Of a DNA stretch of 64,000 nt, positions 7,518 through 20,382 are shown in pieces; within the stretch, counting starts at the first letter, position 1, and the number at the start of each line of letters is the position of its first letter. The position numbers and the translations under genes were made by a program. The notes under the pieces were generated by a model. That model was given only the letters and a program-made list of their open reading frames with translations, had not been told where the DNA came from and did not search any database. This DNA comes from an uncultured Gemmataceae bacterium (GTDB lineage Bacteria > Planctomycetota > Planctomycetia > Gemmatales > Gemmataceae), in NCBI GenBank assembly GCA_963750165.1, contig CAVVPN010000003.1, positions 1,600,001-1,664,000 of the forward strand, read 5' to 3'.

Positions 7518-8288
7518 ATGGCATCTCGACTTGCTTCCAGCTCTGGAGTGGCGTTGCTGGCGGGCGCCCTGGTGTTCCTTACCCCGCTGCCGAGTCCGGC
7601 GCAGCACGGCGGTGGTCATGGCGGCGGCCACGGCGGCGGCATGGCGCACGGCGGCATGGCGCACGGCGGCATGGCGCACGGCGGCATGATGCACGGCGGC
7701 ATGGTGCACCCCGGGATCTACCGGGGTGGCTACGGCTACGGCGGCTACGGCCTGGGCTACGGCGGCCTCTACGGGTTGGGTTATGGCTACGGCCTGGGGG
7801 GCTACGGTTACGGCCTGGGGGGCTACGGTTACGGCCTGGGAGGCTACGGTGGCTACGGCGGTTATGGTGGCTACGGTTACGGCGGCCTCGGTTATGGCGG
7901 CTACGGCGGCTATGGCTATCCTACGGGGGGCTACGGCTACGCTCCGAGCTACGGTCTCGGCTACACCACCCCGGGCTACGGTTACGCTCCGGCGACGGTG
8001 CCGGCCCAGCCCAACGTCCCGCCCAACGGCCAGGCAGCCCTGAATGGCGGCGCCGGCATCCAGGTGATCGTGCCGGGGAACGCGGAACTCTGGTTCGACG
8101 GCAACCCGACCACGCAGCGTGGCCCGGTGCGGGAGTTCCAGACACCGCCATTGGACCCCAACCAGACCTTCACCTACAAGGTGCGCGTCCGCTATAACCA
8201 AGACGGCAACGTGGTGGATCAGGAGCGCACGGTGCAGGTGCGCTCCGGTCGGCAAGCTTTCATGGACTTCACGGTGCCGCAGAAGTGA
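7518..8288 (+). CDS. TIGR03000 domain protein with Gly/His/Met and Gly/Tyr low-complexity repeats
   Basis: Signal peptide, HGGMA and GYGYGLG tandem repeats, C-terminal VIVPGNAELWFDG..TTQRGPVREFQTPPL..YKVR domain. Confidence 0.88.
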   Translation: MASRLASSSGVALLAGALVFLTPLPSPAQHGGGHGGGHGGGMAHGGMAHGGMAHGGMMHGGMVHPGIYRGGYGYGGYGLGYGGLYGLGYGYGLGGYGYGLGGYGYGLGGYGGYGGYGGYGYGGLGYGGYGGYGYPTGGYGYAPSYGLGYTTPGYGYAPATVPAQPNVPPNGQAALNGGAGIQVIVPGNAELWFDGNPTTQRGPVREFQTPPLDPNQTFTYKVRVRYNQDGNVVDQERTVQVRSGRQAFMDFTVPQK

Positions 8289-8793: not shown

Positions 8794-9086
8794 TCAACCG
8801 TTGCGCGGTGGCACGATGTTATAGCCCAGCGCCAGGATCAGTTTGAGCGTCTCCAGCGCCGCGTCGCGGTCGTATTCCTTCTTGTCCTCCGGCAGCTGGT
8901 CGTACGCCACCAGGTCCGGATGCCGCTTGGCGGCGGCGTCCGTCGTCGGGCCATACGTCCAGCCGTCGGCGAGCTTCGCCGCGCCGAGACATCGTGCGTG
9001 TTCTCGGCCAGGCGCTCCGTCAGGTCGCGCAGGGCTTCCGGCAACTGCACCGCGGACGTGTCCACGGGTTTCGGTTCGTAACGCAT
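8794..9086 (-). CDS. Stand-alone RyR (ryanodine receptor repeat) domain protein; frameshift near 8985
   Basis: Joined frames give MRYEPKPVDTSAVQLPEALRDLTERLAENTHDV..AAKLADGWTYGP..DAAAKRHPDLVAYDQLPEDKKEYDRDAALETLKLILALGY, a clear RyR consensus; GAGGGAGG RBS. Confidence 0.88.
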
Positions 9087-9192: not shown

Positions 9193-10090
9193 TCAGGCGT
9201 CCAGGATGCGGCGGGCCTGCTTGCCCATGCTGTCGCGATGGAACGGCTGCACGTTCGCCTCGGCCGCCGTCGCCGGGTGCCAGATGTTGTCGTCCGGCAA
9301 CGCCACCGGCCGCCGGGCTAACAGCTCGTCCGCGGCCGCCCCCCCTTCTGCAAATACACATCGCAACGGACGTCCTGCCGCCGCTGCCACCCCAGCGCCG
9401 CCAGCAGCAACAGCAGCGTCGCCTTGTTGATGCCCGGATAGTGGCCGTTGCGCAGGCCATAACCCAGGTCGTACTGCCGCAGCGCTTCCAGGTAGTGCTG
9501 CTCCGCACGGTCGAGATCCTCGTCCTGCCAGGAGATAGCCGATGCGTTCGTAGAGCTGGGCGAAGACATCGGTCACGGATGCTGGCGACGGGGTGCCGTG
9601 ACAGACGGCGCCGAGGAAGGCGTGTTCGAGGTGGACGGCAGGGATGCCGCCCAAAAACTGCTGGGCGTCGCCGTAGACCAGGCCGATCAGGCTGCCGTCG
9701 CCGGCGTGCCGCGGTTCGAGCGTCATGAACACGGGATCGTGGCGGAGGCCGTGTGGCTTGCAGGTGTGCCAGGCGGGTCACCTCGGCGGCGAGGCGGTCG
9801 GGGCCGGCGAGCTTGACGACGTGACGGCCAGGCTGGTCGGTGCCGTCCACCTCGACGAGGAGGATGAACTCGCGGTCGCGGCGGCGGTAGCCGAGGTACT
9901 GGTCCTGCACGGCGACAGCGCGGGCGCCGGGGAAGAGGCGTTCCAGGCGGCGGGTGAGGTCGGTCATGGTGTCGTCCTGGGCGTTGGGCTGGTGGCGGCC
10001 GATGGCCGCGGCGAGGGCCTGGCGCAGACGGCGCTGGGCGGTGACGGTCCAGAACACGAGCGGCGGTTGCTCGGGCGGGGGCGGTCGCAT
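9193..10090 (-). pseudogene. Internally deleted paralog of the TCAD9-kinase/TPR-S protein
   Basis: N-terminal kinase N-lobe-like part (VVKLAG...GLVYGDA...SVTDVFAQLY) joins almost directly to a TPR-S part (ALRQYDLGY...HYPGINKATLLLL...WHPATAAEA); catalytic HGD lobe absent; several frame changes. Confidence 0.65.
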
Positions 10091-10225: not shown

Positions 10226-10468
10226 TAGAGCGGTTCGCATCAAACGGTAGCGGTTTCTTCGCCCCGAAGGGGCGGGACAACATAGCCCAGGGCATCGCCC
10301 TGGGGGCTCCGATTCGACCCTCTCCCTTTTTTCTTCCGTGCCCTGAAGGGGCACGGAAGAGAGGAGAGTGTCAGTCTTCTCCATGGTTCCCAGGGCGATG
10401 CCCTGGGCCAAGTTGTCTCGCCCCTTCGGGGCGAAGAAACCGCTACACCCAACCGCAACATGCGCCAG
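10226..10468. mobile_element. MITE-like element (TAGAGCGGTTCGC...GTAGCGG shell) carrying a composite palindrome
   Basis: Long inverted arms GTAGCGGTTTCTTCGCCCCGAAGGGGCG...CGCCCCTTCGGGGCGAAGAAACCGCTAC with internal hairpins; left end matches the elements at 14285 and 49341; right end degenerate. Confidence 0.7.
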
Positions 10469-10475
10469 GAGTCGC

Positions 10476-13400
10476 TCAACCCCGCTGCAACATCTGCCGC
10501 ACCCCCGCGAAGTCGCCATCGACGATCTGCTCGAATCCGATGGGGTGCAGCACGTCGGCGATATGCGCCAGCATGTCGCCCACATCCACGATCCACCGGC
10601 TCATCTTCACCAGCAGCATGCCGTCCTGCATGCCCAGCAGGTTGTCGTTGCGCAGCTGCAGCAGGGCGTCCAGTTCGCCCTTCCAGTGCCGCGTGTGGGC
10701 GGCCCGCTCGCGGATGCTGCCGATGCGGGCGTCCTCCAGCGTCAGCGGCAGGATGCGCCGCAAGAACTCCTCCGCCTGACTGCGGCTGTACTGGTAGATG
10801 CCGTGCAGTTCACTCATGCAGAACACCGACCGCAGATATTTTTCGCTCAGCACCACGACTACCCGGTCACCGCGCGTGAGCGCGTGCATGAATTTCGAGA
10901 TGCGCTCGCCGCGGCGCATGGCGTCCTTGTCGCGGATGACCTCGTAGTCCCACGACCGCAGCCGTGCGCACAGGCGCTCAACCACCTCCTCGCGCTGCCG
11001 GCCCGCCGCGGTCGTGTCCTCACCCCAGGCGTAGGAAATGAACACCTGCGGTTTGCCGGCCCGCACGACCACCGATGGTTCGACGATCTCCAGGTCCTCG
11101 ATGCCGCCCCGCGCCGCGTCCGGCGCGGGCTGCTGCCGCTCCGGCGTGCGCGTCACCTCCGGCGGTTGGCCGACGGCCACCTCGAGCAGCGTCTTGAGCA
11201 CGCTCTCCACCAGGTCCGCCGCCTGCTCGCCCCACGCGGACAGGGTGACCTCCCCGGCCCACGGCTGCTCCGGCCCCAGCCCCTGCCGGCTCTGGATCAG
11301 CAGTTTGCAGCGGGTCTTCTGCTCCCAGAAGCGGCAGCCGTACTTCCAGTACACCGCGGCGTCGCGCCCCTGTTCGCCGACCCTCGACAGGAACGTGCGC
11401 AGGATGCCCTCGTGCAGGAAGCCGAAGCGGGCCGTCGCCGCGGCCGTCGGCGGCGTCTCCGGCACCCAGCCGGCCAGCTGGTCCTGCACGCCGCGATCCG
11501 CGAAGTCCGGCAGCAGGTCCGGGGCGGCGTAGTCCCACACCGCATCACGCCCCGGCGCGGCCAGGTTGCGGACCCGGAAGCAGATGCCGCAGCTTAGCAT
11601 CATGCCGAGGAAGGTTTCCTGCTCGGCGTCGCTGTAGTCCTGCCAGACGAGCTGGGCCAGTGTCTGGCGGACGAAGCGGCCGTCGCGGAACAGGTACGGC
11701 AGGGTGCGCTGGCGGTCGAACAGCGTGTAGATCGCCTGCAGTGCCCAGCTCTGATCCAGGATGATGCGGTCCTCGAACAGGCCGCGGCGGTAGAACACCA
11801 CGCCGCTGCGGTGCAGGAACTCCAGCAGCGCCGCCGGGTCGCTGACCTTGCCCGTCTCCTGGCACAGGGCCTGGAACTCGTCCTGGGTGAGGGTGCGGTG
11901 TCGGCGCTGGGCGGGCGGCCGGACCTGGTCCTCCTCCAGCATGGCCCGCAGCCGCTCGCGCACCTCCGCCCGCCCCGCCCCGATCTGCCGCAGCGGCCGC
12001 CGGTGCAACAGGTGCTGCACCGCTTGCTTGAGGTGGCCCACCAGGGCGTCCAGCCCGTAGTCGGTTTTGGCGCTGAACTCCAGGAACTTGCGAGAGCGGA
12101 AATCCTTCACGGGTACATCGGGCTGCGGCCGGCATTGTTCGGGGCCGTCGCACTGGCTCTGGACGACCAGGACCGGGCTGACGGTGCCGGCCAGGCGGCG
12201 GACGTAATCGAGCCAGTAGGCCAGGGGGTGATGGCGCATCTCCACGCCCTTCTCGACCGTGCCGCCCGTCTCGTGGTCCGGCGTCCACAGGAGGACGAAG
12301 ACCGCGTGCCCCTGCAGGAAGAGGGCGTGCGTGCCGTGGTAGACGTCCTGGCCGCCGAAGTCCCAGAAGCGGACATGCACGGGGCGGTCGCGCCCGGTCA
12401 GGGTTAGCTCGAAGTCGTGGAGTTCCACGCCGTGCGTGGTGGGGACGTTGTTGGGGTCGGGGTCGTACGGCAGCCCGCGCAGGCGGCGGCACAGCTGCGT
12501 CTTGCCGACGCCGCCGTTACCCAGGACGAAGAGTTTGACTTCCGCGTCCTCGGCGGCACCGTGTTCCAGGTCGGCGTAATGGGCTTTCACCTGGTCGAGG
12601 ACATTCTCGTGTGATGCTTGGCCACAGACTTCTTCCGGCAAGTCGTTGAAATGACAATCGAAGAGACGCAGTTCCTGGAGTTTGGGGAACAATTGATGGA
12701 ACCTGTCAAAGACGCGAAGTTTGTCACACCGGCACAGGTCGAGGGACTGGAGGTTGACCAGGGCCGCCAGCGGGGCCACGTCGGCCACGCCGGTGCTCTC
12801 CAGGTCGAGGGATTGGAGGTTGGTCAGGGCCGCCAGCGGGGCCACGTCGGCCACGCCGGTGCTCTCCAGGTCGAGGGACTGGAGGTTGGTCAGGGCCGCC
12901 AGCGGGGCCACGTCGGTCACGCCGGTGCTGGCCAGGTCGAGGGACTGGAGGTTGGCCAGGGCCGCCAGCGGCGCCACGTCGGTCACGCCGCGGCAGTTGC
13001 TGAGGTCGAGGGACTGGAGGTTGGCCAGGGCCGCCAGCGGCGCCACGTCGGTCACGCCGCGGCAATAGCTGAGGTCGAGGGACTGGAGGTTGGCCAGGGC
13101 CGCCAGCGGCGCCACGTCGGTCACGCCGGTGCTGGCCAGGTAGAGGGACTGGAGGTTGGCCAGGGCCGCCAGCGGCGCCACGTCGGTCACGCCGGTGCTG
13201 GCCAGGTAGAGGGACTGGAGGTTGGCCAGGGCCGCCAGCGGCGCCACGTCGGCCACGCCGGTGCTCTCCAGGTCGAGGGACTGGAGGTTGGCCAGGGCCG
13301 CCAGCGGCGCCACGTCGGCCACGCCGCGGCAGAAGCTGAGGTCGAGGGACTGGAGGTTGGCCAGGGCCGCCAGCGGCGCCACGTCGGTCACGCCGGTGCT

Positions 13401-14228
13401 GGCCAGGTAGAGGGACTGGAGGTTGGCCAGGGCCGCCAGCGGCGCCACGTCGGTCACGCCGCGGCAATAGCTGAGGTTGAGGGACTGGAGGTTGGCCAGG
13501 GCCGCCAGCGGCGCCACATCGGCCACCCCGGTGCTGTCCAGGTCGAGGGACTGGAGGTTGGCCAGGGCCGCCAGCGGCGCCACGTCGCTCACGCCGCGGC
13601 AGTAGCCGAGGTTGAGGGACTGGAGGTTGGCCAGGGCCGCCAGCGGCGCCACGTCGCTCACGCCGCGGCAGTAGCCGAGGTTGAGGGACTGGAGGTTGGC
13701 CAGGGCCGCCAGCGGCGCCACGTCGGTCACGCCGGTGTCGGTCAGGTCGAGGGACTGGAGGTTGGCCAGGGCCGCCAGCGGCGCCACATCGGCCACCCCG
13801 GTGCTGTTCAAGAAGAGGGACTGGAGGTTAGTGAGGGCCGCCAGCGGCACCACGTCTTTAATTTCCGTGCAGCCAGTCAGACTGATTCGCTCAAGCTGCG
13901 TTAGGGTTCCAAGAATGCTCAGGTCGGAGATGCCTTGCGCTTCCAAGTACCAGCAATGGCCCTGGGCGTCACCCGGTTGGGTTCCAAGAATGCTCAGGTC
14001 GGAGATGCCTTGCGCTGGTCGATTCGGATCCCATTCCCAATCAACACCGTCCTTGCCAATGCGAGGCGACCATTGCCCCAGCGCCAACACTCTCAGTTCC
14101 GTGAGGCTCCCCAACTCCTCGGGCAACGCATCGAGCGGCAAATCGCCAAGGTCGAGAACCTGGGCATGTTCCGCACGCGCCGCGGCGATGCGGCGCACGG
14201 CTTCCCGGTGGGCTTCTTCAGGCGACAT
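10476..14228 (-). CDS. Roco protein: LRR - Roc GTPase - COR - TIR
   Basis: About 17 LRRs; G1 GNGGVGKT, G2 PTTHGV, G3 DFGGQ, G4 SQCD, G5 SAK; COR motif LEFLHRSGVVFY...IILDQSW; TIR motif VFISYAW...VVVLSEKYLRSVFCMSEL. Confidence 0.93.
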   Translation of the reverse strand: MSPEEAHREAVRRIAAARAEHAQVLDLGDLPLDALPEELGSLTELRVLALGQWSPRIGKDGVDWEWDPNRPAQGISDLSILGTQPGDAQGHCWYLEAQGISDLSILGTLTQLERISLTGCTEIKDVVPLAALTNLQSLFLNSTGVADVAPLAALANLQSLDLTDTGVTDVAPLAALANLQSLNLGYCRGVSDVAPLAALANLQSLNLGYCRGVSDVAPLAALANLQSLDLDSTGVADVAPLAALANLQSLNLSYCRGVTDVAPLAALANLQSLYLASTGVTDVAPLAALANLQSLDLSFCRGVADVAPLAALANLQSLDLESTGVADVAPLAALANLQSLYLASTGVTDVAPLAALANLQSLYLASTGVTDVAPLAALANLQSLDLSYCRGVTDVAPLAALANLQSLDLSNCRGVTDVAPLAALANLQSLDLASTGVTDVAPLAALTNLQSLDLESTGVADVAPLAALTNLQSLDLESTGVADVAPLAALVNLQSLDLCRCDKLRVFDRFHQLFPKLQELRLFDCHFNDLPEEVCGQASHENVLDQVKAHYADLEHGAAEDAEVKLFVLGNGGVGKTQLCRRLRGLPYDPDPNNVPTTHGVELHDFELTLTGRDRPVHVRFWDFGGQDVYHGTHALFLQGHAVFVLLWTPDHETGGTVEKGVEMRHHPLAYWLDYVRRLAGTVSPVLVVQSQCDGPEQCRPQPDVPVKDFRSRKFLEFSAKTDYGLDALVGHLKQAVQHLLHRRPLRQIGAGRAEVRERLRAMLEEDQVRPPAQRRHRTLTQDEFQALCQETGKVSDPAALLEFLHRSGVVFYRRGLFEDRIILDQSWALQAIYTLFDRQRTLPYLFRDGRFVRQTLAQLVWQDYSDAEQETFLGMMLSCGICFRVRNLAAPGRDAVWDYAAPDLLPDFADRGVQDQLAGWVPETPPTAAATARFGFLHEGILRTFLSRVGEQGRDAAVYWKYGCRFWEQKTRCKLLIQSRQGLGPEQPWAGEVTLSAWGEQAADLVESVLKTLLEVAVGQPPEVTRTPERQQPAPDAARGGIEDLEIVEPSVVVRAGKPQVFISYAWGEDTTAAGRQREEVVERLCARLRSWDYEVIRDKDAMRRGERISKFMHALTRGDRVVVVLSEKYLRSVFCMSELHGIYQYSRSQAEEFLRRILPLTLEDARIGSIRERAAHTRHWKGELDALLQLRNDNLLGMQDGMLLVKMSRWIVDVGDMLAHIADVLHPIGFEQIVDGDFAGVRQMLQRG
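12734..13844 (-). repeat. Tandem 66/69-bp LRR-coding repeats (16 full units plus 1 divergent)
   Basis: Units LAAL(A/T)NLQSLxLxx(T/CR)GV(A/T/S)DVAP, nearly identical at DNA level. Confidence 0.95.
13904..14016. repeat. 38-bp exact direct repeat flanking a unique 37-bp spacer, in frame within the Roco gene
   Basis: GGGTTCCAAGAATGCTCAGGTCGGAGATGCCTTGCGCT at 13904-13941 and 13979-14016. Confidence 0.9.
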
Positions 14229-14262
14229 GCGGTTTTCTCCGATTCATGGTTCGGTTGCTGCT

Positions 14263-14624
14263 GTCCGGTTCGTAGTACCGGCTTTAGAGCAGTTTGCGGC
14301 TGGGTGTAGCGGTGGAGTGTGGTGGCCCTGTTACTCGGGCTGGCAGCGTGGGGCACGGGACGGCACTGGTTTCCGACACAGTGGCCCGGTGGCCCGGTGG
14401 CCCGGTGACTCTTCCGACGACCCGCTACACCCGTCCGCTCACTGCTCTAGCCGGAACCGACGCTCAGATTCCGGCTAATACGGGAGCGCCTGGAGAGTTC
14501 ATGTTCCCTGTCCGAGCCCGAGCGCCAGCGAGGTGGCAGCTGGCCCCTCGCTGGCGCTCGGGCTCGGACCCCAGACAAGAACGATCCAGGCGCTCCCGTA
14601 TAAAGCCGGCACTACGAACCGGAC
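14263..14624. mobile_element. Nested element: GTAG-type REP doublet interrupted by two different MITEs
   Basis: Outer arms GTCCGGTTCGTAGTACCGGCTTTAGCCGGAA / TTCCGGCTAAAGCCGGCACTACGAACCGGAC; MITE 14287-14447 with TA duplication; MITE 14479-14600 (TIR TACGGGAGCGCCTGGA) with TAA duplication. Confidence 0.85.
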
Positions 14625-15738
14625 GCCAGCATCCGGACTCTGTACGAGATGACGCGATGCGGTCCAGCCGTGGACACCTCATGGTACTGGCTCGCCACCC
14701 CGCCCGACAACGCCCCGGGCGCTGCTTCTTCCGCCCCGCCGGCAGCGGCTCCTCGGGGCACCAGCGCCGCGCCTCGGTGCGCAGCAGCCCTAGAAACACC
14801 TGCGCCGGCTCGGACAGGTCCAGCTCGCCCTCCGCGGTGGGGTGCTGGCGACAGATGAGCCGGACCACGTTCGGCGGCGCGAGGTCCGGGTGCAGGTCGC
14901 GCACCAGCAGCCCGCCGCGGTGCCGCGCCACCAGCGACCGCGGCAACAGCGCCACCCCCAGCTCCTTGCGCACGTAGCGGTCCACCGTCGGCCAGCCGCC
15001 CAGCTCCAGCACCACCCGCACCTTCTCCAGCACGCCCGCCGCCCGCAGCCTGCCGTTGAACGCCTGGCGCAGACTCGACTGGGCGTCCGGCAGGATCAGC
15101 GGGAACCCGAGCAGGTGCTCGGCCGTCACGGCGGGGCCTTTCGGCAGTCGCTCGAACGCCGCCGCGCTCGGCCCCCGGTCGGCGCACACCAGCTGCAGCG
15201 GGTCCGAGAACAGTTGCTCCACGTGCAGCTCGCGGCGGGCCAGCCGGTGGATGCGCGCCTCGTCGTCGGTGACCGCGGCGAGGTCGAGCACGCCGAGGGC
15301 CACCCGGCGGATGCGCGACTTGCCGCGCAGCACCGACACGCGCAGCGGTGCCGTCGGGCGCTCGCGGACGAAGGCGGTGACGGCCTCCAGGACGAAGCCG
15401 CCGACCGCCTCGTGACCGCAGGCGAAGCGCACCGCCGCGGGCCGGCCGCTGTGGACGTAGCCGGTGAAGTCCTGCCACCAGCGGACGGCTTCCTCGATGG
15501 CGGGCAGCAGGTCGCGGCCCTCCTGCGTGAGGACGAAGCGTTTGCCTTTTTTTTCGAGCCAGGGCCGCGGCAATTCCGTGCTGGCGTGCTGCAGCGGCTT
15601 GAGCCGCTTCGACATGCTGGCCTGGTTGATGTTGAGGTCTCTGGCCGCGACCGTGGCGTTGCCGTGGGCCGCCAGCAGCGCCAGGAGCGTGCGGCAACTT
15701 TCGGGGCTGAGCGGGATGGACGTGCGTGGCATGGTCAC
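14464..15738 (-). CDS. LysR-family transcriptional regulator (LysR similarity ends near 14770; the C-terminal tail runs through repeat DNA and is doubtful)
   Basis: HTH GNATVAARDLNINQASMSKRLKPL...LTQEG; substrate-binding domain with LDLA, FPLILP and ELGVALLP motifs. Confidence 0.88.
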   Translation of the reverse strand: MTMPRTSIPLSPESCRTLLALLAAHGNATVAARDLNINQASMSKRLKPLQHASTELPRPWLEKKGKRFVLTQEGRDLLPAIEEAVRWWQDFTGYVHSGRPAAVRFACGHEAVGGFVLEAVTAFVRERPTAPLRVSVLRGKSRIRRVALGVLDLAAVTDDEARIHRLARRELHVEQLFSDPLQLVCADRGPSAAAFERLPKGPAVTAEHLLGFPLILPDAQSSLRQAFNGRLRAAGVLEKVRVVLELGGWPTVDRYVRKELGVALLPRSLVARHRGGLLVRDLHPDLAPPNVVRLICRQHPTAEGELDLSEPAQVFLGLLRTEARRWCPEEPLPAGRKKQRPGRCRAGWRASTMRCPRLDRIASSRTESGCWRPVRSAGFIRERLDRSCLGSEPERQRGASCHLAGARARTGNMNSPGAPVLAGI

Positions 15739-15830: not shown

Positions 15831-18092
15831 TCATTTCCGCCCGCCGCACCCCCCGACCGGCCCCGGTTGGATGCTCTCCCAGGTCGCATGGCCGGCGAAC
15901 AACACGTCCACCAGCCGGCCCAGTTCCTTCTGATCGAGCACGTGCCACAGCCGGCAAAGTTGGTGGTACGCGGCCTGCACGGGTTGCACAGTCGCGCCGG
16001 AGTGGTCCAGGGCGTTCTGATAAAACTCAAACGCTTCCGCATACTTGCCCAGAACCAGGGCCGCCTCGCCTTCGGTCGCGAACACCCAGAACGTGTCCTC
16101 GCGTTTCAGAATGTCCGGTCGCCAGCACAACTCGGCCACGCGCCTGGCGAGTCGGGTCGCCCGCGGCGCCTCACCGAGCAGCAGCGCCAGTGACGCCGCG
16201 TTGACCCCGGGGTAGTAATCGTCGGTCAGCTCGAACGCCTCCTCATAGACCAGCAGGGCCATGTGATACTGCTGCCATGCCGGCGAGCCCTGCGGCACTC
16301 CGCCACTCTCCTTATCCACCCGATACCACTTCCCCCACGCCGCGTCCCCCGCGTTCTTGTAGGTGCGTCCCAGCCGGCTCAGCGTCTCATGGTCGCCGAA
16401 GACCTTGCACCCTTCCTGGAAGCCAAGGACCAGCTTCTGGGCTTCCGCGCCTTTGCCCACCTCGGAGAGTAACAGGGCGTATTCCTGCTCCAGCGGCACC
16501 GCATGGCTGAACAACGGCCGGTACACTTCGAGCAACTTCAGCCCCTGCGCGGCCTTGCCCTCCTGCCAGAGACGATGGGCCTGGAACAGCGGCACACGGT
16601 AGCAGGGGCAGAGAACCGCCTCGTCCTGCGGCGGCTGCGCCATCAGATCGCGGAGGCTCTGCTGCGTCGTGGTGAGTCGGGCCGCCGCCACCCCGGCCGC
16701 GACCAGCGCACACTCGGCCGCCTGCGGTTCGTAGTCCCACTTCACGCTCATCAACCCGTAGACGGTCAGGGCGAAGTAATACTCCTCGCGCCAGTCGTAC
16801 ATCCGGCTGCGGTCGTGTCCCAGGACCAGGGCTGCCTCCTGCCGGATGCGCAGCAGGATTTCCAGCAACCGATCCAGCGTCTGCTCGTTCAGCACGCCAC
16901 GGCCGCCCGGCGGTTCGCGGCGTGCGGCGTCATCGCGGCTCAGGATCTGCTCGGTGCGCTCCGCCAGCTGTCGCTCGAAGAAGTACGCGAACTCCAGCCG
17001 ATCCGCCCGCCGCCCCCGGTCGGTATTGCTGGCCGGCCCGGTTCGCTTCCGCGCCGAGTCGTGTAGCAGCCGGTCGCGGATTTTCGGCTCGCGGTACAGT
17101 TTCGTCAGCATCCGGACCTTCAGCTCGGTCTCCAGTTTGACGAAATCCCAGACGATGACGTTATCCGGCCGCATCGTGCCATAGTCGATGATGACCGGGT
17201 ACTGTGCCTCCTCGCGTTCGACGCCGAGCAGGATGTTGCGGCCGTGCAGGTCGCCGTGCGACCGGCCGACCAGCGTCTCGGGCAGGGTGTTGGTGTCCAG
17301 GGCCCAGCGCACGTAGCTCACCGGGTCCAGGTAGGTCGGCACCAGGTCGGCGAGGTTTTCGGGCCGCTCCTTGCCGCACAGCAGCCAGATGGCGTCGCGG
17401 CGCAGTGCCACCGGGTCCGGCCGCCGCGCCCCGCCGGTGCAGCACCATTTCGTCAGCACCCGGTCCACTTCCGCCTTCGCCCCGGTCAAGAGTTTGCCTT
17501 CGTAGAACGCCCGGCCGCGATCGTCGGTCAGTCTGCCGTCGGCGTAGAACCAGCGGCCGAGGTCGGTGAAAAGATGGCAGATCACCCGCTCCACCGACAC
17601 CGGATCGGGGTTGTCTTTCACGGCCCATTCGACCACGGTTTCCAGGGTTTCGACGCGAGTTTTTTCGCCGTAGCCGCCGAACAGCATGTAGGCGTCCCGG
17701 TAGATCACTGCGAACCGGTCGGTTTTGGGCAACCGGTCGTCTTTGGACAAATCGTAGGGCCGCGGCGCATGAAGGATGCGGCTGGCCACGTCGCGGCCGG
17801 CGGTGCAGGCGTTCCAGCCGGTCCAGTCCGATTCGACCTTCTCCTTGCGGCCGATCTTGACGATGTGCGACTCGAAGCCGTCGTCGAAGCGCACGCCGAC
17901 GCCGAGCACCACCGACTTGCTGATGTCGGGCGCATAGCCGGTGAAGGAGCGCGACACGGTGATGGCCCGGGCGGGGCGCTGCTCGTCCCGGGTGAAAATG
18001 GCGGCCAGTTCGGGCCGCAGCACGTCCTTGAAGGCGTCGGGGATCTCCCGCGCGGCCGGTTCCACGAATTCGACCAGGTGACGTTCGGCCAT
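15831..18092 (-). CDS. TCAD9/APH-like kinase fused to a TPR-S (MAP3K TRAF-binding-like) domain, 753 aa
   Basis: Start MAERHL with GGAGG RBS; IVKIG Lys, HGDLHGRNIL catalytic loop, IIDYG, WDFVKLETELK; C-terminal HETLSRLGRTYK, YEEAFELTDDYYPGVNAASLALLLG, FWVFATEGEAALVLG. Confidence 0.8.
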   Translation of the reverse strand: MAERHLVEFVEPAAREIPDAFKDVLRPELAAIFTRDEQRPARAITVSRSFTGYAPDISKSVVLGVGVRFDDGFESHIVKIGRKEKVESDWTGWNACTAGRDVASRILHAPRPYDLSKDDRLPKTDRFAVIYRDAYMLFGGYGEKTRVETLETVVEWAVKDNPDPVSVERVICHLFTDLGRWFYADGRLTDDRGRAFYEGKLLTGAKAEVDRVLTKWCCTGGARRPDPVALRRDAIWLLCGKERPENLADLVPTYLDPVSYVRWALDTNTLPETLVGRSHGDLHGRNILLGVEREEAQYPVIIDYGTMRPDNVIVWDFVKLETELKVRMLTKLYREPKIRDRLLHDSARKRTGPASNTDRGRRADRLEFAYFFERQLAERTEQILSRDDAARREPPGGRGVLNEQTLDRLLEILLRIRQEAALVLGHDRSRMYDWREEYYFALTVYGLMSVKWDYEPQAAECALVAAGVAAARLTTTQQSLRDLMAQPPQDEAVLCPCYRVPLFQAHRLWQEGKAAQGLKLLEVYRPLFSHAVPLEQEYALLLSEVGKGAEAQKLVLGFQEGCKVFGDHETLSRLGRTYKNAGDAAWGKWYRVDKESGGVPQGSPAWQQYHMALLVYEEAFELTDDYYPGVNAASLALLLGEAPRATRLARRVAELCWRPDILKREDTFWVFATEGEAALVLGKYAEAFEFYQNALDHSGATVQPVQAAYHQLCRLWHVLDQKELGRLVDVLFAGHATWESIQPGPVGGCGGRK

Positions 18093-18394
18093 TGGCGAAA
18101 CCTCCTTTGAGGTGAGAGGCGAGGCGCACATCACGATGATGGGGCGCGCCGGGCACTGGGGTTTCCCACCGCCGGGGTGGGCGATCTTGATTCCCCCATG
18201 TCGCAGCCCGATTGTACCCTGGCGAACCTCCGTGCAAACACAATTCGGCGTTCCTGTCAGGCACCACGGCCAGGAACCTGGAGAGATTGCCGATACGCGA
18301 CCGGCGCGAGTCATCGACCGCAGAACCTTCCCGTCGTGGGTTCATGCCCTCTACAATGGCGAGAGTCTCGTCGCCATGAATCCCTCGGTGCCCC

Positions 18395-19321
18395 ATGACG
18401 AACTCTGTTTCGCCGGAAGTGCTGCGCAAGGTCCGCAAGCTGGCCCAGCTGCCCGAGGAGGCGCGGCAGTGTCACTTCGCCGTGTCCATCACCCGTCTCA
18501 CCGTCCTCAAGAGCCTGTGCGCACAGCCCGACACGGCCAACCGCTTCGTGACGTACCTGGCGCGGGCCACCCGGCGGCGGGTGGAGGAAACGCCCAAACG
18601 TCCGCGGAGCCTCTCGGAGCAGGAGTGGGCGGCCCACCGCGACCTGCTCGGCCGGGCCGTCGTGGCGCTGGAGCGGTACCTGGAGCGGCCCACGGAGGAG
18701 GGTCGCGACCGGCTGCGGACGCTCTTGCGGGAGTTGATCGACGCGCAGAACGAGCACCGTCGGGTATACGGCGGGCCGGTGCGGATCATCAAGGACATGA
18801 ACCTGCTCGTGGTCGAGTACGCCGTGCGCACCGTCGTGGCCAACGCGGCCAGTGCCCCGTTCTGGGTCTACCATACGGCCCGCTGTTACGCAGAACGCTA
18901 CGACGCCCGCCACGGCACCGGCCTGACGCCGGAGTCGGCGCCGCTGGTACAGGACATCGCGGACTTCTGGCTGCAGGAGTACGGCCTCACCGCCGAGACG
19001 CTCACCGCGCCGGCGCGGTCGCGCAAGCCGCGGAAGGCAGCGGCGACGGGTGCGGCCGAGGAGCGGGTGCGGTTCACGCCGCGGCAGGGGCAGTTTTTGG
19101 CGTTCATTCACCTGTACCGCACGCTGCACCGCCGCGGACCGGCCGAGACGGACATGATGAAGTATTTTCGCGTGACGCCGCCCGCGGTCCACGACATGGT
19201 CGTCAAGCTGGAGCAACTGGGGCTGGTGACGCGCGAACCCGGGGTGGCGCGCTCCGTGCGCGTGGTGGTACCCGCCGCGGAACTGCCCGCGCTGGAGGCG
19301 GTCGAGGGGCCGGCGTGGTGA
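18395..19321 (+). CDS. Protein with unknown helical N-terminal domain and C-terminal LexA/MarR-like winged HTH
   Basis: FTPRQGQFLAFIHLY...PAETDMMKYFRVTPPAVHDMVVKLEQLGLVTREPGVARSVRV. Confidence 0.75.
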   Translation: MTNSVSPEVLRKVRKLAQLPEEARQCHFAVSITRLTVLKSLCAQPDTANRFVTYLARATRRRVEETPKRPRSLSEQEWAAHRDLLGRAVVALERYLERPTEEGRDRLRTLLRELIDAQNEHRRVYGGPVRIIKDMNLLVVEYAVRTVVANAASAPFWVYHTARCYAERYDARHGTGLTPESAPLVQDIADFWLQEYGLTAETLTAPARSRKPRKAAATGAAEERVRFTPRQGQFLAFIHLYRTLHRRGPAETDMMKYFRVTPPAVHDMVVKLEQLGLVTREPGVARSVRVVVPAAELPALEAVEGPAW

Positions 19322-19399
19322 TGGACCCGCCGCGGCGCTACGGTAGGTCCGGCGAGCCGAGCCGGACCCGCAGCGGTTGCCGCTCGGCTCGCGGCACCT

Positions 19400-20382
19400 A
19401 CGGCGGCGGCCGGCGGCAGGGCGTCGAGGTCCACGGCCGCCAACCCCGGCAGCGTGAAGCGCCGCCGCGATGTGACCAGCAACAGGCAGCCCTGCGACGG
19501 CGTCAGCCCCTCCAACTGCTCCGGGCCGGCGGCGATGTCCAGCAGCAGCAGCAGCACGCGCTTGCCCGCCAGTACACTATGGTACATGCCCTCCAGCGCC
19601 GCGTCGTCGTCCGGCAGGCGCTGCTCCAGCCCCAGGAACGAGCGGATCACGTGGCCGAGGATGTCGCGGCGCGGCAGCGGCGGCAAGCCGGCGTGGAAGC
19701 CGCTGAGGTCGAGCGCCACGTGGCCATCGCGGTAGCGCTCGCCGACCAGCGCCGCCAGCTTGCGGGCCAGCTCCGTCTTGCCGATGTCCCCCTGGCCGCG
19801 CACGCCGCTGATCGTCGCCCCGTGGTCGCAGTGCGCCAGCAGCGTTTGCAACTGCTCCGTGCGGCCGATGAAGTCCGGCACCGGCGCCGGCACCTGCCGC
19901 GGCCCCAGCAGCCCGCGCCGCCGCATCCAGCCCTGCAGCGCCAGGTACACGGCATGGCGCAGGTTGTCCGGCGTGGTGAATGTGGCGGCGACCAGGCCGG
20001 CGTTGCGAATCTTGTCGTGCAGGGCCTTGATGCGGTCGCGGTGCTCGGGCTGCTTGCGCTCCTCCGGCCAGGCGTACTGCGGATCGACGAGGAAGCACAG
20101 CCGTTCGAGGCCGCGCCGCGTGGCGTGGTCGAACTCGTGCTCGGTGACGGAGCGCTGGTCGCCGGGCAGGGGGTGGCCGAAGCGGTAGGCGAAGACGCCG
20201 ACGTAAACAGCCGCCCCCTCGAGCTTGAGCAGCGAGGCGCGGACGGCGTCGAGGTCGGCGGCCTCGAAGTCCTTCATATCGACGACGCCCAGGCCGAGCT
20301 CGTCGCAGGCGCGGCGGACGGCGGCGCGGTAGTCGGCCAGGTCGAGACTGGTGCTGCTGATGAAGACCGTGGCGAGGGGCAT
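19400..20382 (-). pseudogene. DUF4062 (TIR-like) + NB-ARC/STAND NTPase, truncated
   Basis: VFISSTSLDL..YR...SVTEHEFDHA; PRQVPAPVPDFIGR; Walker A GVRGQGDIGKT; Walker B LLLLLDIA; LLVTSR; homology stops after LDALPPAAA with no TPR/sensor region. Confidence 0.75.

Follow-up and report, generated by a model that had tools for sequence, protein, structure and literature searches.

An APH-fold kinase joined to an ASK1-related TPR-S domain in a rare planctomycete-enriched gene cluster: a candidate enzyme under the control of a NAD-derived signal

A 64,000-nucleotide stretch of the genome of an uncultured Gemmataceae bacterium (GenBank assembly GCA_963750165.1, contig CAVVPN010000003.1, positions 1,600,001 to 1,664,000; hereafter the window) carries a gene, P0001, which encodes in a single chain an intact kinase of the aminoglycoside phosphotransferase (APH) fold and a C-terminal TPR-S domain. 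Extrapolating from domains, catalytic residues, gene linkage and gene fusions to ligand, gating, substrate and immune role, we give about an even chance to a model in which P0001 is a kinase switched through TPR-S by a signal derived from nicotinamide adenine dinucleotide (NAD), within a TIR-linked conflict cluster whose RyR and Nudix proteins buffer and clear the signal. The kinase/TPR-S fusion is regarded as the core of a rare, planctomycete-enriched cluster with a LysR gene, a Nudix pair, RyR, and STAND or Roco receptors bearing TIR or DUF4062 domains. An earlier description made from the DNA letters (hereafter the original prediction) had recognized the kinase, the sensor and a possible link to RyR; it is extended here by the surrounding Nudix/LysR/TIR cluster and by the decay seen in the copy of that cluster in the window.

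Domain organization and structural model of P0001

P0001 is the sole open frame at its interval, and all the motifs from which an intact kinase had been claimed were located in this single frame of 753 amino acids, that is, IVK at residues 77-79, HGDLHGRN at 279-286, DYG at 303-305, YYPGVNAA at 626-633 and FWVFATEGEA at 668-677. Upon Pfam search, P0001 matched TCAD9 (PF19974) at E = 2.6e-24 (86.6 bits, cut-off 40) and TPR-S (PF20308) at E = 1.4e-11 (45.3 bits, cut-off 27.6), and the top Atlas cluster of the latter domain (0.97) was 97% TPR-S. The Pfam families APH (PF01636), Pkinase and MAP3K_TRAF_bd gave no match in P0001 at E ≤ 0.1, and no family in PADLOC 2.0 and NCBIfam 20 matched the kinase at E ≤ 0.001.

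A structural model built on an alignment of 86 rows reached a predicted local distance difference test score (pLDDT) of 93 and a predicted template modelling score of 0.93; a fold from the single sequence (pLDDT 39) was discarded. The model was compared with 48,161 structure chains by VIA-align. The APH-like fold anticipated for the middle region was recovered, residues 20-478 matching APH- and choline kinase-type enzymes at Z of 13-14: choline/ethanolamine kinase 3dxq gave Z 13.9 (root-mean-square deviation 3.8, 263 aligned residues), and TvaE, LxmK, APH(2'')-IIIa and maltokinase gave 13.7, 13.5, 13.3 and 12.7, respectively.

For residues 476-741, the best match among these chains was ASK1 (5ULM; Z 14.2, root-mean-square deviation 3.6, 244 aligned residues), as against Z 11.7 for the best generic TPR. 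Because helical repeats may reach Z of about 13 through chance arrangement, and because Foldseek alone returned mostly generic TPRs, with ASK1 absent among the matches listed and the ASK1 match coming from VIA-align, the likeness to ASK1 needed support from the sequence. A profile of 27 TPR-S domains matched ASK1 at E 1.7e-5 with the motifs G-R-x-Y-K-D and G-I-N aligned; in this search the generic TPR protein PA4667 ranked above ASK1 (E 2e-9, summed over repeats), and with a full-length profile ASK1 scored just E 0.083. Altogether, homology between the TPR of P0001 and the TPR regulatory region of ASK1 is well supported, in agreement with the assignment of the C-terminus to TPR-S and not to generic TPRs. 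The two outcomes that the original prediction had named as contrary to it, a generic TPR at the C-terminus and the lack of a phosphotransferase fold, were both looked for, and neither was observed.

The central regulatory region of ASK1 (MAP3K5; PDB 5ULM and 8QGY) thus shares with P0001 the TPR fold and both motifs. The kinase of ASK1 is of the Hanks type and stands C-terminal, after a PH domain, whereas that of P0001 is of the APH fold and N-terminal, the protein ending about 12 residues past the TPR match. The pairing of kinase and TPR arose separately in the two proteins; since the kinase of P0001 is not of the ASK1 type and lies on the opposite side of the TPR, the eukaryote-like pairing proposed for it is an analogy and goes no further.

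Conservation of the kinase and the sensor

A total of 148 relatives of P0001 were identified at E ≤ 1e-30 among 50%-identity cluster representatives, and both domains are catalogued families, so that P0001 is not unique. Among the 86 full-length homologue rows, K79 and D281 are each kept in 85 and N286 and D303 in all 86, while the alpha-C acid (D89 in P0001) is D or E in 84. Given this retention of the catalytic residues in 85-86 of 86 rows, selection is considered to act on the family as on an enzyme. In a tree of 64 kinase domains, two clades were separated with full support, P0001 falling into clade A. A single frame encodes kinase and TPR-S in 45 loci, whereas another 18 have them in separate adjacent frames, indicating that the two modules stay coupled; in 17 of the 18 split loci the break coincides with the boundary between the domains, and in many of these a Met directly precedes the TPR.

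The four residues K579, Y616, N631 and W669 are invariant in all 27 TPR-S domains compared, which were taken from fusions with kinases, cyclases and DUF4145. Their invariance with three different partners suggests that these domains have a ligand pocket in common; binding of a NAD-derived signal by TPR-S has been predicted in the literature. The sensor-gated enzyme of the original prediction is probable.

TCAD9 is the APH-like kinase domain of ternary conflict systems. P0001 scored above the cut-off of this family with its catalytic residues intact, and differs from the usual TCAD9 by the fusion to TPR-S. According to one report, a few active APH-like effectors might phosphorylate small molecules (Kaur et al. 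2020, PMC7159879), and P0001 is similar to these in having intact catalytic residues. No MoxR or vWA family was found among the top matches of 70 neighbour proteins or of the window genes scanned, which represent a subset of the neighbours. The kinase/TPR-S fusion or its cluster was not found in the literature searched, which did not extend to two papers whose figures or supplements may show it, by Burroughs and Aravind (2020, J Bacteriol) and by Burroughs (2015, NAR); the terms 'TPR-S' and 'RyR' were not found in Kaur 2020, Kaur 2021 and a 2026 ParA preprint.

At E ≤ 1e-60, matches were present in 22 of the 251 further genomes covered from the family of the host and in none of 15 from the sister family. 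Across the phylum, 5 of 400 genomes gave a match at E ≤ 1e-30, one of them merely a TPR-S cyclase. A scan of genome contigs with the single P0001 protein gave no locus, and a DNA search of 30 relatives turned up dispersed repeats and individual genes but no cluster that matched. The genome itself contains a second TCAD9-type protein (L139, 2323-2508 on G000:C10); the 9 kb examined there hold neither TPR-S nor any of the cluster genes.

Gene cluster around the kinase

After removal of 16 near-duplicate metagenome loci, recognized by coordinates and identity, and then of 10 further duplicates, a total of 82 loci were retained, of which 25 extend at least 5 kb on both sides. One locus (L066) was dropped as a duplicate on a guess; its flank is shorter than 3 kb and the 25-locus count is unaffected. 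Two loci without kinase (L054 and L138), the partial TCAD9 match L139 and the window itself were also left out of the counts. Neighbour profiles were built from the loci, and the 70 neighbour proteins were checked against Pfam.

Within 5 kb of the kinase, the 25 loci contain Nudix in 19, RyR in 14, LysR in 13, TIR or DUF4062 in 13, TrkA in 5 and a cyclase in 3 cases, with RyR or Nudix present in 22. In clade A alone (eight loci), Nudix was found in 8, LysR in 5, RyR in 4 and TIR or DUF4062 in 4 loci. Because most of these loci had supplied the profiles, a check was made on later-fetched loci. These 10, several of them short contigs and one (L136) repeating a training locus while another (L135) may repeat one too, gave RyR in 6, Nudix in 6, either of these in all 10, TIR or DUF4062 in 4 and LysR in 2. 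For the background, 474 tiles of 20 kb from the genome of P0001 were scanned, and RyR, DUF4062 and TPR-S were each detected in one tile, LysR-type in 3 and TIR in 5. Nudix was detected in no tile, and the single matches to RyR, DUF4062 and TPR-S all fall in the P0001 locus. Some clusters additionally contain a cyclase with TPR-S or a protein of the TrkA-RyR type.

Of 150 representatives, 10 have a Nudix domain in front of the kinase in the same protein, and 2 (L069 and L073) are fusions of RyR with the kinase. Apparent read-throughs between kinase and RyR were not counted as fusions: in L123 the frame of the TPR-S is a different one, and in L117 and L136, which are identical in sequence, the RyR keeps its own Met.

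These direct Nudix-kinase fusions, together with the Nudix gene within 5 kb in all eight clade A loci, are what would be expected if the kinase edits the signal, that is, phosphorylates the ADP-ribose-type signal or its Nudix product and thereby inactivates or converts it, as APH enzymes do with antibiotics, leaving the TIR-STAND protein, the cyclase or the TrkA-RyR protein as effector. The top structural matches of P0001, mostly kinases of small molecules such as sugars, choline and aminoglycosides, fit the same idea. The TPR of ThsI, the effector of type VIII Thoeris, is presumably the TPR-S of Pfam; the effector in that system is a hydrolase fused to this TPR, which favours an effector role for P0001 and leaves editing of the signal rather unlikely.

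The neighbourhood could also be read as that of a TPR-S-gated protein kinase in stress or developmental signalling, with the LysR protein, a STAND protein or a host factor as substrate and without a role in immunity. The dedicated LysR subfamily linked in about half of the loci (13/25), the class III cyclase (3/25), the TrkA-domain protein (5/25) and the match to TvaE and LxmK, peptide kinases of the same fold, argue for it. On the other hand, the spread of the family is patchy (22/251 family genomes), the TIR/STAND partners vary and decay is frequent. Such features are typical of conflict systems, and this reading is judged unlikely. As to the substrate of P0001, a small nucleotide or sugar-type molecule is the first choice with a chance of about one half; a protein other than RyR is the less favoured possibility, and RyR is very doubtful.

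Several unusual proteins were observed in these loci. In L069, a protein at 167-2977 (−) combines a RelA/SpoT-type nucleotidyltransferase, SLOG (LSDAT) and RyR near the RyR-kinase-TPR-S fusion. Triple-Nudix proteins (L050, 4821-6152; L091, 18625-19992; L153, 10977-12362) show a recognizable Nudix box in the last domain, the two preceding domains being degenerate; RExxEE is kept in just 40 of the 94 distinct Nudix-like domains of the loci. Proteins with TrkA_N and RyR, possible channels, adjoin the cluster in L051, L075, L077, L114, L137, L149 and L150. An island of about 27 kb on one contig (L081 and L090) contains both kinase clades, two LysRs, Roco-TIR, Nudix-TIR-TPR, RyR, a TPR-S cyclase and DUF4145-TPR-S, and may resemble an earlier state of the cluster in the window.

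Linkage of RyR to the sensor

In 34 of the 82 loci, a RyR gene and the kinase gene are no more than 350 bases apart, so that the link to RyR in the original prediction is real; the part suggested there for RyR, that of a substrate of the kinase, is not supported. Among the 120 best TPR-S matches, obtained with a query alignment that included cyclase-type TPR-S rows, 54 are RyR-TPR-S-cyclase, one RyR-TPR-S, 46 TPR-S-cyclase and 19 kinase-TPR-S proteins; RyR thus occurs without kinase in 55 of them, and associates with TPR-S more than with the kinase. The RyR-TPR-S-class III cyclase proteins share with P0001 the TPR-S subfamily and the RyR partner, and TPR-S cyclases stand in some of the same loci, but the place of the kinase is taken in these proteins by a cyclase.

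In two preprints, phage RyR-domain proteins are described to bind or hydrolyse 2'/3'-cyclic ADP-ribose (cADPR) (PMC13232231; 10.64898/2026.06.04.730250); the residues used by RyDEP are H75, W78, H100 and D117, and hydrolysis of the signal is given there for RyDEP and for no tested homologue (PMC13232231). In 30 stand-alone RyRs of the cluster, H, W, H and D are found at the same spacing in 30, 29, 26 and 30 proteins, respectively. The cluster RyRs therefore resemble phage RyDEP and RyR Tad in these ligand residues, and differ in being host-encoded within a putative immune cluster.

Phosphorylation of RyR by P0001 would be in line with the close linkage, the two RyR-kinase fusions and the conserved threonines T11 (29/30) and T81 (27/30) of the stand-alone cluster RyRs. 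Both threonines, however, also occur in the repeats of animal RyR2, no RyR is present within 5 kb in 11 of the 25 loci, and the genome of P0001 combines an intact kinase with a broken RyR. Since RyR is often fused to TPR-S without kinase and keeps the residues for cADPR binding, it is unlikely to be a substrate of the kinase, and we attach very little probability to the explanation of the cluster built on it.

Proposed signalling and comparison with type VIII Thoeris

In the model preferred here, P0001 would be a catalytically active kinase of the APH fold that is controlled by its TPR-S domain. Upon detection of an invader by the STAND or Roco receptor, the TIR or TIR-like domain of the receptor would convert NAD+ into an ADP-ribose-type signal, and the binding of this signal to the conserved pocket of TPR-S would switch the kinase on. 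RyR may bind, and perhaps open, a cyclic signal, while the Nudix proteins would degrade linear ADP-ribose, and these two activities together would set the threshold and reset the system.

The closest known arrangement is type VIII Thoeris, in which, according to the preprint describing it, the effector ThsI consists of a CMP-hydrolase and a TPR, and canonical cADPR stops the growth of cells carrying the system (bioRxiv 10.64898/2025.12.03.692087). Compared by description, the two systems are alike in having an enzyme joined to a TPR with TIR-type genes nearby. They differ in the enzyme, a CMP-hydrolase in ThsI and a kinase in P0001; in the signal-making TIR, which is stand-alone in type VIII, whereas in the window the TIR is part of the Roco protein and DUF4062 part of an NB-ARC protein; and in the Nudix, RyR and LysR genes added in the P0001-type cluster. 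By this analogy, P0001 may be taken as a counterpart of the type VIII effector that stands outside that type, with no hydrolase and no stand-alone TIR. A more specific version is tentatively put forward as a possibility: in a Thoeris-like immune system, a TIR receptor of the NLR or Roco type would produce a cADPR-type signal, an APH-fold kinase gated by cADPR via a TPR homologous to that of ASK1 would serve as effector, and host-encoded RyR and Nudix would act as built-in threshold.

A number of points weigh against the proposed signalling. The sensing of cADPR by the TPR of ThsI is a presumption only, made with citation of Burroughs and Aravind 2020, and in the same source the TIRs on AVAST proteins are set aside as probable NAD-depleting effectors (10.64898/2025.12.03.692087); by analogy, the TIR-STAND/Roco context would count against the cluster TIRs as makers of a signal. 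TIR and DUF4062 are absent within 5 kb in 12 of the 25 loci. Related loci and genomes are not independent samples, for which reason the counts are given without a p-value. PADLOC gave no match for the kinase, LysR or RyR. The peptide kinases TvaE and LxmK match the P0001 kinase as well as the small-molecule kinases do. The RyDEP-type residues are kept across the whole Pfam family of RyR and hence are not specific to the cluster; for this reason, and because hydrolysis was found for RyDEP alone, the residue set indicates cADPR binding at most. Finally, the RyR gene in the window is broken, and a profile scan of the 93%-complete assembly found no Nudix partner.

If TPR-S gates the kinase by a NAD-derived signal, P0001 would provide a single-chain enzymatic read-out for the cADPR binding presumed for the TPR of ThsI, and a model for asking whether the homologous region of ASK1, in which G-R-x-Y-K-D and G-I-N are kept, has a nucleotide pocket. 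For RyR domains, described as phage anti-defence in the two preprints (PMC13232231; 10.64898/2026.06.04.730250), a role on the side of the host is offered. Since both domains are catalogued and the cluster in the window is partly broken, an intact homologous locus would be the better object for tests.

State of the cluster in the window

The positions of the cluster genes and of the elements of P0001 in the window are listed in Table 1. The cluster is decaying here, with the kinase, LysR and LRR-Roc-COR-TIR genes intact. The order LysR then Roco is common to the window and L090, where the Roco protein is 49% identical over 766 amino acids, and a piece of it is found in L091. The TIR of the LRR-Roc-COR-TIR protein keeps a Glu at what we take to be the catalytic position.

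Table 1. Features of P0001 and of the surrounding cluster in the window
Feature	Position	Strand	Remarks
Kinase/TPR-S gene P0001	15831..18092	−	ATG at 18092, stop ending at 15831
Kinase domain of P0001	16659..18035	−	residues 20-478; K79, D89 (alpha-C acid), H279-G-D281-L-H-G-R-N286, D303
TPR-S sensor of P0001	15870..16667	−	residues 476-741; Pfam and structure match
Ribosome-binding site of P0001, AAAGGAGG	18101..18108	−	8 bases 5' of ATG
Sigma-70-like promoter match	18211..18238	−	9/12; weak, consensus match only
LysR-type regulator, cluster-specific subfamily	14464..15738	−	intact; 40-47% identity to LysR genes next to homologous kinases
LRR-Roc-COR-TIR protein	10476..14228	−	intact 3.75-kb gene; many near-identical LRRs
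Second kinase/TPR-S copy, clade B	9193..10090	−	broken; 62-75% identical to L040 pieces
Stand-alone RyR-domain gene	8794..9086	−	frameshifted near 8985; Ser at conserved Trp position
DUF4062 (TIR-like) + NB-ARC gene	19411..20382	−	truncated; homology to 849-amino-acid L047 frame (50% identical) stops at 19411
Unrelated gene of 308 amino acids	18395..19321	+	between truncated STAND gene and kinase, beside dispersed palindromic repeat

In the clade B copy, the frame changes several times and the catalytic loop is lost through a large internal deletion; the RyR gene, 6.7 kb downstream of P0001, is the sole RyR match in the assembly. In an assembly control, 2 frame changes were detected in 22 control genes, so that the RyR frameshift by itself could be an assembly error; for the group of lesions together with the deletion this is unlikely. 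P0001 may therefore lack its buffering partners in this genome. Its copy might even be a functionless remnant of a decaying island, the frame of which has not yet been hit, as the three broken cluster genes in the neighbourhood and the missing Nudix partner would allow. This concerns the copy in the window only and is compatible with the other readings; given the intact 2.26-kb frame with its catalytic residues and ribosome-binding site, the LysR gene and the 3.75-kb Roco-TIR gene, it is considered quite unlikely.

Sigma-70-like sequences were found at two sites only within 12 kb, 18238-18211 and 10185-10157 (−), each just upstream of a kinase gene, as compared with a mean of 0.5 (standard deviation 0.7) expected from shuffled sequences. 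Dispersed palindromic, REP-like repeats, of which the genome has many copies, lie at the joints of the cluster (around 10227-10467, 14249-14609 and 19327-19416), the last of these coinciding with the point at which the DUF4062-STAND gene is cut off. The unrelated gene at 18395-19321 (+) has no Pfam match and shows a weak LexA-type helix-turn-helix at the C-terminus (E 0.0006), and DNA of 70% identity to it is present in another genome (G012). A TIGR03000 (plancto_dom_1) gene at 7518-8288 (+), which points to a planctomycete host, encodes a protein with a Gly/Tyr-rich N-terminus.

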